A stretch of DNA of 64,000 nt from a virus. Its lineage: Duplodnaviria; Heunggongvirae; Uroviricota; Caudoviricetes. Shown in pieces: positions 13,724 to 47,740 of this stretch (its first letter is position 1; the number at the start of each line of letters is the position of its first letter). The notes under the pieces are model-generated. The model was not told the origin of the DNA. It did not search any database and saw nothing but the letters and a program-made list of their open reading frames with translations. Location: positions 64,001 to 128,000 of IMG/VR virus record IMGVR_UViG_3300031867_000007; one strand, written 5' to 3'. The position numbers were made by a program, and so were the translations under genes.

Positions 13724-14233
13724 TTAGACTTTATAACTATAATCTTTTTCTACTTTATATAATATTGCTTCAGCTTTTGTTTTTTCTCTTGAAGTAAAAC
13801 CAATGCGGGAATCAGTTAAAACTAATTTATCTGAGAAATATTCTTTTATATCAAAACTTTCATCATCTAAAATGACGAAATCTACTGGATGATCTATTTT
13901 ATCTAAATATTGTTTTATTTGTTCACCTCTTTCAAGATATGTATCTTTAATAGCTATATCTTTTATTTGAATATTATATTCTTCAAGGCGTGCAGCCGCA
14001 ACTTCTCTATCTACATCATGCAATCTCCAAGAGCTAGTTAAAACCACATAAGGTTCATCATCTTTTGACCTAATATAATTACATAAATATGCTAATTGTA
14101 TTAGTGAAGATGGATCAAAAGGCACATTATTACAAAAGAAGGGATGCTTCCTATGGAATTTTTTATAGCATAATTTAGTATATTTTTCATTATTTAAAAC
14201 ACCATCTATATCTAAAAATATATATTTTTTCAT
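13724..14233 (-). CDS. HAD-family phosphatase (Swiss-army-knife RNA-repair type)
   Basis: FLDIDGVLN, TSSWR, RGEQI, ILDD. Confidence 0.8.
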   Translation of the reverse strand: MKKYIFLDIDGVLNNEKYTKLCYKKFHRKHPFFCNNVPFDPSSLIQLAYLCNYIRSKDDEPYVVLTSSWRLHDVDREVAAARLEEYNIQIKDIAIKDTYLERGEQIKQYLDKIDHPVDFVILDDESFDIKEYFSDKLVLTDSRIGFTSREKTKAEAILYKVEKDYSYKV

Positions 14234-17722: not shown

Positions 17723-17771
17723 CTCCTTTTATAAATATATTATATTATAATTTTAATAAAAAATCAATAAA

Positions 17772-18469
17772 TTATAATTCAACAAAATCATTTAAAAAAC
17801 ATTTATGTTTTTCATCTAATTGAATGTCTACATGATAATGTCCGAAAAACCACTTATTATATTTTACATTATTCTTTATTTGATTTAACATTATTTCTGA
17901 TGTATGCTCTACATTGTCCTGATTTATATTTAATAAAGTAATTAAATATACCGAATATTCTTTAAATATATCATATGGACAACAGTGAGTAATTATATAA
18001 TCAACTTCATCATATTTTAAACACTTGTCTATATCTTCTTGTGTAATTGTTTCATCCTTCCACCAAGATAGATGCGGAATTCTACGAATTTTATCTACAC
18101 TATCGGCTCCGCCACAGCACAATATAGTTTTTATACCATTTTCTGTTTCGACAGTCATCTTAGTTCCTCTTGTTATATAATGAATATTTGAACTAACGTC
18201 TATTATTTTTTTATTAGGCTGATATTCTTTTAACTCTTTTAATATATCGAAATTTTCATGGTTTCCATCTATAAACCATATATGAAAATAATAATTTTTA
18301 TGATTTTCAATAATTTTTTTCATATCTACCCTATCTTTTCTCCAACATATTCCTGCATCTCCGGCAATAATAATATTAACATCTGATTGATCTAAACCGA
18401 ACTCTGTTTACCCAATCATATATTCTTTCAAAATCCCCGATGAGTATCTCCAGTTACAAACCATCTCAT
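17772..18469 (-). CDS. calcineurin-like metallophosphoesterase (2 C+GGN shifts)
   Basis: GDTH[G], GDAG, GNHE, GHYH; extra C at 18439 and 18399. Confidence 0.85.
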
Positions 18470-18592
18470 TTTTCTTATCTCCTTTTTATTTTATATATTT
18501 ATTATATCATATTTTTAATAAAAAATAAAATAGATTGCTTAAATAGCAATCTATTTTATTAATGTGCTATATCGCGTTCTACCGATCTTCCG

Positions 18593-25291: not shown

Positions 25292-25424
25292 TTATTAATA
25301 TTTGAAGGTGGGACGGCGTACCCCACATCTCATTATAGAACTAGGTCTTATAAGCTTTGTTTCAATATTACACTCTGCCTAGCCGCGTTAGCTGCCTTTC
25401 TAACCTCTTCAAATAATTATATTT

Positions 25425-27558: not shown

Positions 27559-28441
27559 CATTTGTTAATCTTGTGATTTCGCACAAGTTCGGACTATACC
27601 TTCTACTTAAATTGAAATCTTTTCATAATTTCATCTCTGACATATTTATTCAAAGGATACTCTAATTCTGGATTATAAGCAGTAATTCCAATATTTATAT
27701 TAGAAATTGAATTTTTTGCAACTCCATATTCTCTTGCTAATTCTCTTATTGGAACTCCACTCATAATTGCATCTTGAATTTCTTCATAATAACCATATAA
27801 TTTACCTTTTCTATTAGAACCACCATGCTCTTGAATAATTTTAGATAATAAGCTATCACTAATATTAAAATATTCTATTATTTCTTGTCTTGGTAAATTA
27901 GTATTATTATATAAATCCCAAACTTCTTCTCTATATTCAAATTTTTCATCTATATTATTTATTGGATTATAATTTTTTGTTAATTGTTCATTATAAATAA
28001 TATAATCTAAATCTTCATATTTTTTGATAATTTTTTGTTCATAATAATCAATTTGAGATTTCAAACACTCTACTTCAATATTAACTTCTATATTATCAAA
28101 TCCTATTTTATTTATCCAATTATAGATAGGTCTATCTATTTTCTTTTTAACATAACTTTTATGTGCGTACATTCTTTGCTTAATATTTGAAGTTTTTCCA
28201 ATATAAATTTCCTTTAAATTATTTTTATTTTTAAGCGAGTAAATATACATATTTCCTCTCCTTTCTAAAATTTAAGTAGCCCCTTGGTAGTCTCTGAGGG
28301 CACGCCATTACGCTTATCCCTGCTGATTGTCCAATCTTTAATATTTTTACACTTTGGTAATTAAAGCTCTAAGGAGTTTCCAGCATATTCAGGGTTTTTC
28401 TTTTATTGTATCACTACAATAGGGAAGCCAGATTAACACAA
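27559..28441 (-). mobile_element. group I intron in glyA
   Basis: Exon ends in U, intron ends in G; P/Q/R/S-like ATGCTGGAAA, AATCAGCAG, TCAGAGACTAC, AAGGTATAGTCC; splicing restores SGG|HLTHG. Confidence 0.9.
27603..28250 (-). CDS. intron-encoded GIY-YIG endonuclease
   Basis: MYIY..IYIGKT..R..H; HTH repeats. Confidence 0.85.
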   Translation of the reverse strand: MYIYSLKNKNNLKEIYIGKTSNIKQRMYAHKSYVKKKIDRPIYNWINKIGFDNIEVNIEVECLKSQIDYYEQKIIKKYEDLDYIIYNEQLTKNYNPINNIDEKFEYREEVWDLYNNTNLPRQEIIEYFNISDSLLSKIIQEHGGSNRKGKLYGYYEEIQDAIMSGVPIRELAREYGVAKNSISNINIGITAYNPELEYPLNKYVRDEIMKRFQFK

Positions 28442-33390: not shown

Positions 33391-33448
33391 CCAAGTTTCT
33401 TAGTAAGAACACCCTTCGCCACGAGAAGGCGAACTTGGTTCGAAGGAC
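33391..33448 (-). ncRNA. HDV-like (theta) ribozyme in tRNA 3' trailer
   Basis: P1 GTCCTTC/GAAGGGT, P2 CCAAGTT/AACTTGG, P3 GCC/GGC, L3 TTCTCGT, J4/2 CTAA. Confidence 0.8.
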
Positions 33449-33508
33449 GCAGGGGCTGTAGGATTCGAACCCACACCCACGGTTTTGGAGACCGTTACCC
33501 TGGTTTTG

Positions 33509-34112
33509 CTTACCACTATAGTTTTCACTACCTACTGGACACTATAGTTTGTGGTCTGGAGTACATCTTCACCATATTATTTCTAACTTAGGTGTGCGAT
33601 TATCTACTCTCTACGGGCTAAAATATTATTTTATTCCCTCGGTATTGCCAGTCAAGGTTTCACCGATATCATCGCATCCACTCAAACTGTTTCCAATCTG
33701 AGGCTCCAATTGAGTAAAGTTATTTTTATAAGGTTCTAAAGCTTTTATTCCTATTGAACTACTATATTTCATAATAAAGTCTATTGGCACTATATATAAA
33801 TCTTCAGTCTCAATATCTGTTCCTATAAAATAATCTATTTCAGACTTATTATATAAATGAATTTTATATTGTCCTTGATTATGATTTATTTTTCGTACAG
33901 GAAGAACCTTCCTTCCACTATCCTTTTGAATAGTTTTAATTTGCATTTTTATTAAATAATTGTTTTTAATTGCAATACAATCTACTTTAGTATTTTCTAA
34001 TACAGGAATATATAATTCTCATTCCCTTTTTAGTAATTCCTTTTCTAGTAAATTATATCCTAATCTACCTTTAGTTATTGTGTCCACAACTTTACTCCTT
34101 TTTATTTAGCTT
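33509..34112 (-). mobile_element. group I intron in tRNA anticodon
   Basis: ATCGGTGAAA, AATACCGAG, CGTAGAGAGTAG, GAAGATGTACTCC core; terminal G; IGS TTGGAG (33704-33709) pairs across the junction. Confidence 0.85.
33626..34087 (-). CDS. intron-encoded PD-(D/E)XK endonuclease (1 in-frame TGA)
   Basis: AAGGAG RBS, GTG start; KG..KVDCI..MQIKT..Y...IDYF. Confidence 0.8.
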
Positions 34113-34213
34113 AAGACCAGTGTGCTACCATTACACTAAGCCCCTATATTAAAATTCTTTCTTTTTATATATACATTTTATTATATTTTTTTATAAAAAT
34201 CAATAAAAATTAT

Positions 34214-34288
34214 TGGCGACGTTAGGAAGTACTGATCCCCCGATCTCCGCAGTGATAGTGCGGAGATCTACCGCTGAACTATAACGCC
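34214..34288 (-). tRNA. tRNA-Asp-like, anticodon ATC, atypical T loop
   Basis: CCGCA CT ATC AC TGCGG; G73 CCA. Confidence 0.65.
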
Positions 34289-35187: not shown

Positions 35188-35544
35188 TGGTGGAGATGAC
35201 GAAGACTCGAACTCCGTGTCCAAATTATATTCAAAAATAATATCTACAAGTTTAGTTTATTGTTTAATCTTTGATATATTTCTTACAACAAACAAAAATA
35301 TAATATATCGCACCTTTTTAAATCTTTGTAGGCGATACCAAGGTTACTTTTCAGCCACTACGCATCTACTTAATAACATTATTCTAAAAACAGTAGAATT
35401 TTTTAGATAATGTGTCTATTTTTAGGCAGCTACTAATTCTGTATTAGCGTTTATTTTATTTGCACCCATTTTTAAAGTTCCCATTGTGTCTCAACTACTT
35501 GCAACTATTTTATCTAATAAAATGTCGAAACCAAATACATCCCC
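35188..35544 (-). ncRNA. ssrA: tmRNA
   Basis: GGGGATGT..GGTTTCGAC 5' end; TTCGA..CATCTCCACCA 3' end; tag ORF ending ANTELVAA*. Confidence 0.92.
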
Positions 35545-43680: not shown

Positions 43681-44934
43681 ATGATAAATAAAGAAACAGG
43701 TTTGCGTGAATTATGCTATGTAGTTAATATAGATGCAATAGAACCAATAATAGGTTCAGATAATTGCGAGGCTGCAGTTGTAGGTGGATGGAAAATAATG
43801 GTTAGAAAAAACACTTTTAAAGTTGGAGATAAAGCGGTATATTTTGAGATTGATTCAAAATTACCTGAAACGAAAGAATATGAGTTTTTAGCAAAAAAAC
43901 ATTATAAAGTAAAAACTCAAAAATATACATTCGGTGGAAAAGGTAATTTTATTTCACAGGGTTTATTAATGGCTTTTGATGATTGGGTAGATGAAGAAGG
44001 TAAAATTCCATCTTGGTTAGCTGCTTTAAATTTACAAAGAGCCAATGATATAGATATTACAGGTACTTTTTTAACAAACACACTTGGAGTAAAATACTCA
44101 GTTATAGAAGATAACAAAAGAAAAGCATCTGTTGATAAATATAAAAAAATGGCACAAAGACATTGGAAATTATTTAAACATAATAAAATTATTCAATGGT
44201 TATATGGGAAAAATTGGGGTAAAAAATTATTATTTTTCTTTTTAGGTAATAAAGCAGATATAAAAGCTTCGTTCTGGCCTGATTGGGTAATAAAAACTGA
44301 TGAAGAAAGAGTACAAAATTTACCTCAACTATTTCCTCCAGATGATACTGAATGGTTTGTAACCGAGAAAATAGATGGAACATCAACGACTTTTACAATG
44401 AAAAGAGCGAAAAGAAACAAATATGATTTTTACGTATGTTCTAGAAATGTATGTTTTGATAAACCTGAAAAAGAACAAAAACTATTTTATGAAAATAATG
44501 TCTATACAGAAATGGCAATAAAATATAACGCAGAAGAAGTTTTAAAAAATATATTAGATATTCATAATGATATTGAGTTTGTTACTATACAAGGAGAGAC
44601 ATATGGAAAAGCAATTCAAAAAAGAGATTATGGTATGGATACTATAGATTTTAATGCATTTAACTTAATTTTTGGTTATAAAAATGGAGAAACAAAAAGA
44701 TTTAATCCAAGAGAAATGAAAGAAATATTAACAAATACATACAATATACCCTGCGTTCCAATTTTAGATGAACATTTTAAATTACCAAATTCAATAGATG
44801 AAATGATAACTTATGCAGATGGAAATTCAAAAATAGATGGAGAGTATAGAGAAGGTGTTGTATTAAGAACCTCAGATGGAGTAAATTCATTTAAAGCAGT
44901 TTCAAATGAATATTTATTAAAAAAAGGAGAATAA
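43681..44934 (+). CDS. ATP-dependent RNA ligase (Rnl2/DRB0094-like, N-terminal OB fold)
   Basis: YFEIDS, SQGL, KTDEER, EKIDGTS, QGE.YG, REGVV, FKAVS. Confidence 0.88.
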   Translation: MINKETGLRELCYVVNIDAIEPIIGSDNCEAAVVGGWKIMVRKNTFKVGDKAVYFEIDSKLPETKEYEFLAKKHYKVKTQKYTFGGKGNFISQGLLMAFDDWVDEEGKIPSWLAALNLQRANDIDITGTFLTNTLGVKYSVIEDNKRKASVDKYKKMAQRHWKLFKHNKIIQWLYGKNWGKKLLFFFLGNKADIKASFWPDWVIKTDEERVQNLPQLFPPDDTEWFVTEKIDGTSTTFTMKRAKRNKYDFYVCSRNVCFDKPEKEQKLFYENNVYTEMAIKYNAEEVLKNILDIHNDIEFVTIQGETYGKAIQKRDYGMDTIDFNAFNLIFGYKNGETKRFNPREMKEILTNTYNIPCVPILDEHFKLPNSIDEMITYADGNSKIDGEYREGVVLRTSDGVNSFKAVSNEYLLKKGE

Positions 44935-45015
44935 TTGTATAAAATAATCAGCAAATTAATTTTTGTTGATTATTTTTTTATTTTTTGATATAATTGTTAT
45001 ATAAAAGAAAAGGAG

Positions 45016-45390
45016 ATGATGAAAGATATGGCAAAAGTAAGAAATATAAGTACACAGAGTAGATTTTTTTGTACTTGTTGTGGAAAGGAAGGTATGCCAA
45101 TCCAAAGAAAAAAAGGTTCAGAAAGAGAAGCTGGACATTTAAAAAAATTATATTGTATTTATTGTAAAAAAGAAGTTAATCATGCGGAAGTCCGTGAAAT
45201 AGGCGGTTATAATGAAGAGGATTTTAAACAAGAATATAATTTAGGTAGATTTGTTAATGGAAATAAAATAGCAATTAAAGATCTATCTGATTGTAGTTGT
45301 GAAAATTGTGAATATAATATAAATGGAAAATGTTGGAATTCTAATTTTTCTAATGATTGCGGTCATAGAATAAAAGAAAGTGAGGAATAA
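45016..45390 (+). CDS. Zn-ribbon protein
   Basis: CTCCG..GHLKKLYCIYC. Confidence 0.7.
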   Translation: MMKDMAKVRNISTQSRFFCTCCGKEGMPIQRKKGSEREAGHLKKLYCIYCKKEVNHAEVREIGGYNEEDFKQEYNLGRFVNGNKIAIKDLSDCSCENCEYNINGKCWNSNFSNDCGHRIKESEE

Positions 45391-45393
45391 ATA

Positions 45394-45618
45394 ATGAAAT
45401 ATTATAAAGTAAGTGAAACAGATTTAAAATATTTAATAGAAAGTAGAGCAAGACTTGAAGCATTAGAAGCTGGTGGAGTAGATAATTGGTCTTGGTATTG
45501 TGATGCTAACTCAGATTATTTAGCAGATATGAAAGAAGAATATGATATACCAATGGAAGAGGATTTAGATTTTAAAGATATAGCTGATAAAGAAATTAAA
45601 AATTTTGAGGAGGTTTAG
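45394..45618 (+). CDS. hypothetical phage protein
   Basis: LEAGGVDNWSWY. Confidence 0.75.
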   Translation: MKYYKVSETDLKYLIESRARLEALEAGGVDNWSWYCDANSDYLADMKEEYDIPMEEDLDFKDIADKEIKNFEEV

Positions 45619-45619
45619 T

Positions 45620-46143
45620 ATGGCTAAATTATTTTTAATGATGCGGGATTCCACGGTTCAGGAAAAACAACTTGGATTAAAAGACAGTTAAAAGAAAATG
45701 ATATTTATATATCTAGAGATGAAATAAGATTTAGTTTATTACAAAATGATGAAGATTACTTTAAATATGAAAATGAAGTATTTAAAATTTTTTGTAATAA
45801 GATAAATGATGCTTTAACAAATCCAAAAATTAATAGAGTATTTGCAGATGCAACTCATATAAATACTAATTCAAGAACAAAAGTATTAAATAGACTTTAC
45901 ATTCAGCCAGATGAAATAAATGTCATTTGGCTTCAAACTCCATTAATGGTATGCTTAGAAAGAAATGCTACTCGAGAGGGTCGCGCAGAAGTACCAATGG
46001 AAGTCATTAAAAATATGTATTATAGTTTAGAAGAGCCATCTAATAAAGAAAATATTGATTATTTATATATAATTAATAATAGATACAAAACAATAAAAAA
46101 AATATGGCTAAAAGAATATGACTTTGATGGATTTGTATTTTAA
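45620..46143 (+). CDS. P-loop polynucleotide kinase-like protein (2 C+GGN shifts)
   Basis: [G]IP[G]SGKTTW, SRDEIR, DATH..R, CLERN..R; extra C at 45644 and 45654. Confidence 0.88.
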
Positions 46144-46156
46144 GGAGGTATTATAT

Positions 46157-46351
46157 ATGGATAAAGATAATATAACTGAAGATTTATTACCGTGTCCTTT
46201 CTGCGGTGGAGATGCTTATATAAAAAGTTGTAATAAACGTTTATATATAGATTGTGTGCATAAAAAATCATGTAGTTGTCATCCAAGTACTTGATTATAT
46301 AGTGAAAAAAATATTTATAAACAAATAGAATTATGGAATAGGAGGGCATAA
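46157..46351 (+). CDS. Lar-like restriction alleviation protein (1 in-frame TGA)
   Basis: LLPCPFCGG ... WNRR. Confidence 0.7.
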
Positions 46352-46352
46352 A

Positions 46353-47165
46353 ATGAATAGAGAAGAATATATAAGAGACGGCTTACAAAATCATTTGGAG
46401 GAGTTTCAAAAAACATATCCAAACTTAGAGCTATTTGGAATTTTTATTCAAGGTTCTCAAAATTATGGTTTAGATATCTATACAGACAATTATAAATCTG
46501 ATATAGATACAAAAGCAATAATAATTCCGTCTCTTGAAGATGTAGTTATGAATAAGAAGCCTATATCTACAACTCATATTTTATCTAATAACGAACATTT
46601 AGATATTAAAGATATTAGATTATATTTTGATAATTTCAAGAAACAAAATATTAATTTTGTAGAAATATTATTTGCTTGTGATTATATAATTAATCCAAAA
46701 TACGTTGATTTATTTAACGTATTAAAAGAAAATAGAGAATCAATAGCTCATTATAATACTAATCAAGCATTAAGATGTATGTCAGGTATGAGTATGGAAA
46801 AAAAGAAAGCTTTAACCCATCCATATCCTACACTACTTGACAAAATAGAAAAATATGGATATGATGGTAAACAATTACATCATATCATTAGAATGTTTGA
46901 TTTTATTACAGCATATAGTAATGGAGACACTTTTGAAAGTGCTTTAAAATATCAACCGCATAAAAAAGAAATGATGAAAGCTAAAATGAGTGAATATACT
47001 TTAAAAGAAGCGTTAGAATTGGCAGAGTTTTTTGATAGTAATACCAAAAACATAAAAGAAAAATCATTAAAAGAAAAAGATGAAATAAATAAAGATGCAT
47101 TAGATATTTTAAATAAAATTCAATATGAAGCAATAAAAAGAAAAATTCGAGAGGAGGTAATATAA
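46353..47165 (+). CDS. nucleotidyltransferase
   Basis: QGSQNYGL..SDID; GYDGKQLHH. Confidence 0.8.
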   Translation: MNREEYIRDGLQNHLEEFQKTYPNLELFGIFIQGSQNYGLDIYTDNYKSDIDTKAIIIPSLEDVVMNKKPISTTHILSNNEHLDIKDIRLYFDNFKKQNINFVEILFACDYIINPKYVDLFNVLKENRESIAHYNTNQALRCMSGMSMEKKKALTHPYPTLLDKIEKYGYDGKQLHHIIRMFDFITAYSNGDTFESALKYQPHKKEMMKAKMSEYTLKEALELAEFFDSNTKNIKEKSLKEKDEINKDALDILNKIQYEAIKRKIREEVI

Positions 47166-47166
47166 C

Positions 47167-47740
47167 ATGATATATTTTACATCAGATTTACATTTTTGTC
47201 ATAATAAACCATTTTTATATGAACCAAGAGGTTTCAATTCAATAGAAGAACATGATGAAACCGTTATAAAAAATTGGAATAGTGTTATTACAAATGATGA
47301 TGAAGTTTATATTTTAGGAGATTTAATGTTAAATGATAATGAAAATGGAATTAAAAAATTACAGCAATTAAAGGGAAAAATTCATATAGTACTTGGAAAT
47401 CATGATAGTTCAGTTCGTCAAGACATTTATAAAGTATTATTTAATGAAGTATCTTATGCAACTATGATTAAAATTGATAAACAACATTATTTTTTAACAC
47501 ATTTTCCATCTCTTTGTGCAAACTATGATGACAAACCTTATCATAACCATATTATAAATCTATCTCGGTCATACCCACAAAAAAGATAAATTTCATTTTG
47601 AAGATAATCCTTTTTGTTATAATGTTGCTCTTGATGCTCATAATTGTTACCCAGTGTCTATTGAACAGATTAGTAAAGATATACATAAAAAGGTAGAAGA
47701 GCTATATAAAATCAAAGTACAAAAAGAAAAGGAAAACTAA
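47167..47740 (+). CDS. calcineurin-like phosphoesterase (1 C+GGN shift)
   Basis: SDLH, LGD, GNHD, THFP, [G]HTH; extra C at 47566. Confidence 0.88.

Follow-up and report, generated by a model that had tools for sequence, protein, structure and literature searches.

A UCA tRNA of the phage genome IMGVR_UViG_3300031867_000007 has two anticodon arms, one showing UCA and the other CCA, and its gene is split by an intron and followed by a likely theta-like ribozyme. On balance, we find it probable that this optional theta fold trims the tRNA after C74 and that the second, CCA-bearing hairpin lets the host TrpRS charge it. We give even chances to a wider reading, in which such tRNAs form a class of two-arm suppressors, with a stop-reading arm, a synthetase arm showing the cognate anticodon and a switch in stacking between the two, and in which two ribozymes build the tRNA of this phage and could time the recoding. 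The tRNA matters more here than the ribozyme.

The UCA tRNA gene and its parts

The window, i.e., the whole stretch of DNA that was analysed, has 64,000 nt and is part of a record of 143,829 bases. The finding lies on its minus strand and involves the following features:

33391..33448, minus strand: predicted theta-type minimal HDV-like ribozyme, 58 nt, no P4 (fold and descriptor match)
33449..33508, minus strand: 3' exon of the UCA tRNA-Trp (ARAGORN with introns; exact intronless alleles L127 and L130)
33479..33495, minus strand: second anticodon-like arm, with CCA in the loop (covariation, unbiased scan, fold of L127)
33509..34112, minus strand: intron, 604 nt (boundaries from intronless alleles)
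33626..34087, minus strand: intron-encoded PD-(D/E)XK endonuclease, 153 aa (Pfam PF11645, E 2.7e-16)
34113..34145, minus strand: 5' exon of the UCA tRNA-Trp (acceptor strand, D arm, 5' side of the UCA arm)

With introns allowed, ARAGORN predicts a UCA gene that spans 34145-33449 and contains 604 nt of intron. The 3' exon contains the end of the UCA loop, the second arm, the T arm, the acceptor strand, G73 (33450) and C74 (33449). CCA is encoded by all 16 tRNAs identified by plain ARAGORN, and also by two other split tRNA genes and the tmRNA. Hence, the UCA tRNA is the only one here lacking an encoded CCA, as a first-pass annotation of the window had claimed. A weak call of a second UCA tRNA (17763-18562) was rejected because it is not tRNA-like.

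The phage reads TGA as Trp

The genome reads TGA as Trp. Its coding density is 0.812 in code 4 versus 0.639 in code 11 (crude ORF count). Trp is the commonest residue opposite 29 TGA sites of the genome (68 of 196 aligned positions), and Ser is found at three of these positions. Coding density and aligned residues thus agree with the earlier view of a UCA tRNA in a UGA-decoding phage. The TGA:TGG ratio is 85:58 in a long block of the minus strand (genome positions 12.7-63.1 kb), versus 78:153 elsewhere. This TGA-rich block holds the largest ORFs, and is taken to consist of virion genes. TrpRS, CCA-adding enzyme and release factor were all searched for in this genome (97% complete) and not found.

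A tRNA with two anticodon arms

Once spliced, the UCA tRNA has five arms, including the two anticodon arms UCA and CCA, and L127 adopts this five-arm cloverleaf when folded to minimum energy. The second arm has a 5-bp stem and a 7-nt loop with CCA, placed 9 nt from the T stem as in ordinary tRNA-Trp. The accessible part of PMC9976931 gives G73, A1-U72 and G2-C71 to G5-C68 as bacterial tRNA-Trp identity elements. The UCA tRNA has this set: G73, A1-U72, G2-C71, G3-C70, G4-C69 and G5-C68. Its first arm shows UCA, not the CCA of tRNA-Trp identity, which is found on the second arm.

We gathered 106 distinct intronless genes of this type from 153 locus records (some of which are the same contig fetched twice), by scanning viral contigs, metagenomes (120 of about 270 stretches) and genomes and filtering on stem pairing and G73. 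Both anticodon arms covary across these 106 genes (among the matches listed). Pairing amounts to 91% in the second stem, with many pair types, versus 56% in shuffles, a contrast that still includes the kinship of these related genes. Among the same matches, 82 genes have 9 nt between the second loop and the T stem, and 51 have a non-canonical G at position 32 of this loop.

Most of our search patterns required a CCA loop, and we therefore ran a scan lacking this requirement. This unbiased scan for UCA tRNAs covered 120 of about 220 stretches and gave 102 distinct rows, of which, among those listed, 58 did not resemble tRNAs, 33 had a long arm and 11 were UCA tRNAs of the short type. The long arm had a CCA loop in 25 of these 33 (one of them atypical); seven others were tRNA-Sec-like by eye, and one was of another kind. 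An amber scan covered 120 of about 360 stretches, and 20 of its 103 distinct rows were tRNA-like. Among these long-arm amber tRNAs (those listed), half showed a Gln anticodon (CTG or TTG) in a 7-nt long-arm loop, eight were Ser/Leu/Tyr-like and two were unclear, as assigned by eye throughout. PF00749 matched none of the nine searchable Gln-arm records and one of the two unclear ones, a comparison made without a short-tRNA control. One CUA tRNA (L420, in a 608-kb virus record) shows CCA in its long-arm loop.

Two other assignments were considered for these tRNAs. A cellular double-arm family found no support: in GTDB genomes three of 11 distinct tRNA-like rows had the double arm, all on metagenome-assembled contigs, and the other eight look like chance matches to tRNA-Sec. 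A tRNA-Sec was rejected given the 7+5 bp acceptor/T domain and the alignment of TGA with Trp. We found no description of a double-arm suppressor tRNA in the literature searched, from whose scope subscription papers mostly fell out.

The double arm was associated with the lack of a phage synthetase. TrpRS was found in none of 39 double-arm records versus four of 10 short-UCA records (Fisher p 0.001, among the matches listed; the counts exclude two double-arm loci and a weak row of the short type, and many records are fragments). Near-complete records gave two of five for the short tRNAs versus none of 12 for the double-arm ones (p 0.07, the records being related). Six of the 10 records with a short UCA tRNA had no phage TrpRS, and three of these six are at least 90% complete.

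The second arm is likely a handle for host synthetases, given that its loop tracks the amino acid, that it has the spacing of an anticodon arm, that G32 is frequent and that the phage synthetase is missing. It is doubtful that the arm is instead a duplication relic, a decoy for nucleases or modifying enzymes, a T-box ligand or a long arm for SerRS. It does resemble a tandem copy of the first arm, but the stems have fully diverged and are still paired, and the loop follows the inserted amino acid, i.e., CCA with UCA and CTG/TTG with CTA. The combination of G73 and a long variable arm is a SerRS signal (PMC7609411, accessible part), yet Ser is opposite only 3/196 TGA positions, and serine charging was rejected for this reason. 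Another consideration is the ordinary tRNA-Trp(CCA) found nearby in 16 of the 106 loci (among the matches listed), which shows that the second arm is not needed for UGG.

The need for a CCA handle is weakened by the tolerance of TrpRS for U34: the accessible part of PMC12135181 says that the E. coli enzyme accepts U34 and need not tell C34 from U34. Experimental data on phage UCA tRNAs are given in the accessible part of 10.1101/2025.10.30.685624. Nine of 31 such tRNAs were active with E. coli enzymes and 11 were near background, and two need their own TrpRS. In favour of a handle, E. coli extract failed to charge two phage UCA tRNAs that are accompanied by a TrpRS of their own. No second arm was seen in 30 published rows of theta-linked amber tRNAs (all one tRNA) in the accessible tables of PMC10879173.

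A probable theta-like ribozyme after C74

The first-pass annotation had described a minimal HDV fold starting one base 3' of G73, and every element that it named was seen on the minus strand. G1 is at 33448, P1 pairs 33448-33442 with 33417-33411, P2 pairs 33438-33432 with 33397-33391 and P3 pairs 33430-33428 with 33420-33418. L3 spans 33427-33421, and the putative catalytic C is at 33403. The fold is positioned for the predicted cut between 33449 and 33448, also as annotated. Judged by this fold, positions 33391-33448 form a theta-like ribozyme that likely cleaves itself after C74.

As in the theta class, P1, P1.1, P2 and P3 form a nested double pseudoknot without P4, and the predicted cut site is at most 5 nt from the tRNA 3' end. 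P1.1 consists of one C-G pair, which published rows with TC/GA also have. The final published search motif also has a P2 abutting P3 and a J4/2 of 4-5 nt, which the window copy lacks: an extra C separates its P2 from its P3, and its J4/2 (CTAAGA) is 6 nt long, both features being invariant in three copies. We prefer to read them as a P2 of 8 bp that contains a single bulged A. A strict theta descriptor, rebuilt from published table rows, had no match in the genome, and no published row has CTAAGA. We therefore class the ribozyme as a variant, not as a strict member of theta. A relaxed descriptor, which tolerated a single base between P2 and P3 and a J4/2 of 6 nt, matched once in the genome of 143,829 bases and not at all in 100 dinucleotide shuffles; it was relaxed with the site known, and the shuffles thus measure the rarity of the fold, not the impartiality of the descriptor.

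At the gathering level, Rfam missed both the ribozyme and the intron. A sub-threshold match to RF02682 spans exactly 33391-33448 (19.1 bits versus a cut-off of 44, E 0.67). The copies of the ribozyme in L005 and L099 keep 57/57 pair cells, and in three pairs both partners have been replaced. This is modest support, since there are three sequences and 23 of 500 shuffles reach the same level. The candidate catalytic C33403, at position one of J4/2, is invariant in the three copies. A viral scan for further copies of this lineage returned one locus, which was already in our set.

We regard it as quite improbable that the ribozyme is slow or dead, locked in an extended P3 hairpin, with host nucleases trimming the trailer. 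Pseudoknot-free folding favours the extended P3 hairpin (-8.8 kcal/mol) over P1+P3 (-6.9 kcal/mol), with an energy no better than that of shuffles (z -0.97), but the folding program is unable to form pseudoknots. The junction is outside the published theta motif, yet the consensus of RF02682 shares its CUAAG. Tolerance of a dead ribozyme would fit with the 38 of 119 related tRNA ends (among those listed) that have neither CCA nor ribozyme; against it, two relatives have retained all pairs as well as the catalytic C, and show compensatory changes. At -0.7 kcal/mol, a hairpin covering the catalytic C would be negligible. Two of four terminator-like sites are the ribozyme's own stems, and a promoter scan was uninformative (15 promoter-like sites versus 12.1 expected).

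Other HDV-like folds were observed. The window has a second HDV-like ribozyme, with P4 (11842-11915, minus strand; RF02682, 49.7 bits), which has no adjacent tRNA and is preceded by a 500-nt stretch of higher G+C. It has an A-U pair analogous to the P2 extension of 33391-33448. Theta-like folds were also seen directly 3' of apparent tmRNA 3' ends, not of tRNAs, in L015, L025 and L034.

A group-I-like intron in the anticodon

The intron is inserted after U34 of the UCA anticodon and its last base is G, as in 8/8 intron sequences. There is a U at the 5' splice site, and the exons rejoin to a working gene, all of which is expected of group I introns. The group-I-like core (about 33509-33705) has 19 of 51 predicted pairs changing on both sides among eight sequences. 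We take this core to be similar to group I P7 motifs. Rfam RF00028 had no match at the window locus nor in six related loci, and hence we only use the term "group-I-like", which relies on the terminal G and on the likeness to these motifs. The first-pass annotation had invoked two ribozymes in maturation; the split itself, by an intron of 604 nt, is confirmed by the intronless alleles, which fix the boundaries.

The gene of the PD-(D/E)XK intron endonuclease has one in-frame TGA, which needs to be read as Trp. Related endonuclease loci (72-77% identity) are in the same tRNA in five of five cases. The contigs of four sequencing runs (contigs only) provided no spliced joint and no usable 3' end; of the 24 runs listed, 23 had less than a quarter of the words, and the single run containing most of the window may be the source of the record. 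Contig starts at 33449 were considered as tRNA ends and rejected, because branching with ordinary tRNA-Trp genes explains them.

The ribozyme and the intron are optional

Among the 119 distinct 3' ends of the tRNA family that were listed, 75 have CCA, 38 have neither CCA nor ribozyme, and six have a ribozyme. These six correspond to at least four ribozyme lineages, to which one published lineage can be added. The predicted cut leaves G73-C74 in four of the six, leaves G73 in one and removes G73 in one. The latter, at L059:1560-1615 (also in L065 and L304), would strip the discriminator from a double-arm tRNA; the record of L059 encodes an enzyme of the CCA-adding family. Such an enzyme was found in one of five related records, too few to interpret.

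Alleles are informative in this respect. The tRNA of L127 agrees with the spliced tRNA of the window in every letter; it has an encoded CCA and lacks the intron. L130 has the same tRNA, no intron and a different ribozyme. L156 has the downstream flank of the window, but with CCA and with neither ribozyme nor intron. The ribozyme and the intron are thus each optional, and the ribozyme is a stand-in for an encoded CCA end.

The first-pass annotation saw in these steps a multi-step gate on UGA decoding. The comparison does not support such a gate as a conserved design, since only six of the 119 ends listed have a ribozyme and identical and syntenic alleles (L127, L156) do without ribozyme and intron. 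A related possibility is that splicing, cleavage, healing and CCA completion were selected as a gate timing UGA read-through of late genes. The ribozyme is indeed on the sole tRNA matching UGA and on none of the 16 ordinary tRNAs, and at least four lineages of ribozymes, plus the published one, are found on this tRNA family. TGA is also enriched in one long gene block, and the intron endonuclease itself requires UGA read-through. Yet, 113 of the 119 related ends listed lack a ribozyme, alleles manage without these elements, and theta ribozymes are found 3' of tRNAs for all amino acids (PMC10879173, accessible part). We thus find a selected gate unlikely, although in this phage a gate could still influence timing.

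The cut might also mainly serve the downstream RNA, by creating a 5'-OH end of defined position ahead of the stretch at about 33385-33300 and of the next gene. This non-coding stretch is conserved in L005 and L156, but L156 has it without the ribozyme, and we consider this role slightly less probable than even a slow or dead ribozyme.

Repair of the cut end and a possible course of events

HDV-type cleavage leaves a 2',3'-cyclic phosphate. The earlier claim that the cut end would need healing and the completion of CCA, by addition of CA, follows from this chemistry. A Pfam scan of 39 window proteins and the associated searches pointed to enzymes of repair type, namely an RNA ligase, a nucleotidyltransferase, two phosphoesterases and a HAD phosphatase:

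13724..14233, minus strand: RNA-repair-type HAD phosphatase (Pfam PF18143, E 1.8e-20)
43681-44934, plus strand: RNA ligase (candidate end-repair block 43681..47589)
46353-47165, plus strand: nucleotidyltransferase (same block)
47167-47589, plus strand: phosphoesterase (same block)

The block 43681..47589 is matched by PF09414, PF00149, phrog_968, phrog_388 and phrog_547, and by TIGR02306 below the cut-off. The HAD phosphatase is a candidate for healing the tRNA end, and the products of the block are candidates for its repair. A further phosphatase of the phage is encoded at 17772-18323. A literature search for an enzyme healing such ends gave nothing direct. An RNase H protein had no match in PDB at a strict threshold.

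From these elements we propose the following as the most probable course of events. The intron would splice itself out, thereby assembling the UCA anticodon loop, and the ribozyme would cut between 33449 and 33448, removing the trailer and leaving G73-C74. A phage or host phosphatase would then take off the 2',3'-cyclic phosphate, and the host CCA-adding enzyme would add CA (the phage lacks one of the usual family). In one conformer, the CCA arm would occupy the position of the anticodon arm, which would allow the host TrpRS to bind the tRNA and charge it with Trp, and on the ribosome the UCA arm would read UGA. In the wider class the cognate arm would be CCA for Trp and CUG/UUG for Gln, and the switch would consist in which of the two arms stacks on the D stem.

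If the second arm is a handle, it answers the question of charging for recoded phages lacking their own synthetase, and is a new way of separating charging from decoding. The double arm may be the reason for the pseudogene or tRNA-Sec labels that these genes receive, and its principle could serve in the design of suppressor tRNAs. The alleles, which carry CCA or a ribozyme, and an intron or none, on the same tRNA, are suited for testing whether theta ribozymes time the code switch, an idea that is already published.

Other split or permuted genes nearby

Several other RNA genes of the window have unusual structures, all on the minus strand. Just upstream of the UCA tRNA there is a tRNA with anticodon ATC and an odd T loop (34214-34288), the phage tmRNA is at 35188-35544 and a skipping-rope RNA at 25300-25414. 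A permuted tRNA (35870-35770) has its 3' half (T arm, acceptor, CCA) followed by 3 nt and then by the 5' half (acceptor strand and D arm), with an inverted repeat enclosing both. It folds into a closed tRNA-like shape and is missed by ARAGORN and Rfam. A long hairpin (34930-34850) has the inverted repeat of this tRNA at its flanks and no tRNA halves.

Three other genes are split. A long-arm tRNA (32883-32331), Ser-like by eye and Leu according to ARAGORN, has its anticodon loop split by about 470 nt; the insert has complementary ends and encodes a PD-(D/E)XK endonuclease, and a ribozyme core is not visible in it. Another split tRNA (25172-24455) contains a GIY-YIG endonuclease gene that leaves no space for the core of an intron, and its joined anticodon is CTA according to ARAGORN. 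A split gene at 28813-26596, which by its motifs we take to resemble serine hydroxymethyltransferase, has an insert with an endonuclease-like ORF (27603-28250).

Comparison with known systems

Theta ribozymes are already known, and the window copy is a junction variant on an opal tRNA. The accessible part of Kienbeck et al. 2024 (PMC10879173) describes them as tRNA-associated minimal HDV-like ribozymes of gut Caudoviricetes. The window copy shares with them the lack of P4, a G1 within 1 nt of the tRNA end, the catalytic C opening J4/2 and a tRNA without CCA. Theta phages are enriched in a DRB0094-like RNA ligase, and the window phage carries one. On the other hand, the extra C before P3 and the 6-nt J4/2 are absent from the published rows accessible to us, and the 5' 21 nt of the ribozyme are not in the searchable supplementary tables. 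The link of theta to suppressor tRNAs, asserted in the first-pass annotation, is published as such, but almost entirely for amber: 99.7% of the suppressor-linked cases are amber, whereas the window ribozyme is on an opal, intron-split tRNA of a code-4 phage. The anticodon TCA occurs in two of 13,257 theta table rows, both flagged as pseudo; in both, the ribozyme follows G73-C74 and the double arm is visible. The ribozyme thus adds opal, code-4 phages to the range of the theta class, together with a junction that the published motif does not cover, a modest gain. Rfam RF02682 (HDV-F-prausnitzii) has the same core, with CUAAG as consensus junction, and aligns end to end with 33448-33391; it has around 20 nt at P4 versus 5 nt in the window copy, and the score is far below the cut-off.

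The tRNA itself is closest to the opal suppressor tRNA(UCA) of phages reading TGA as Trp (10.1101/2021.08.26.457843; 10.1101/2025.10.30.685624). They share UCA, G73 and A1-U72, as well as a TGA-rich block and, mostly, the lack of a phage synthetase; the accessible parts of these two papers make no mention of a second arm with CCA. The charging of phage suppressor tRNAs is named there as an open question (Borges et al., 10.1101/2021.08.26.457843, accessible part). The tRNA-Sec has in common with the window tRNA the UCA, the long variable region and G73, and ARAGORN labels the window gene tRNA-SeC. Yet, the window tRNA has a 7-bp acceptor stem, a Trp-type body and TGA opposite Trp in homologues. 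Its acceptor/T domain has 7+5 bp, versus 13 bp in tRNA-Sec (PMC7609411, accessible part).

Two anticodons in one tRNA have been discussed before. The accessible part of PMC10228390 proposes two anticodon arms for the chloroplast tRNA-Ser(GCU), from the predicted fold of one class II tRNA, and that of PMC10583094 describes an engineered double-anticodon tRNA, in which one enlarged loop reads six bases. Both share the two-anticodon idea with the tRNA described here; as far as these parts go, neither case concerns a natural family that covaries and has an arm showing the cognate anticodon.
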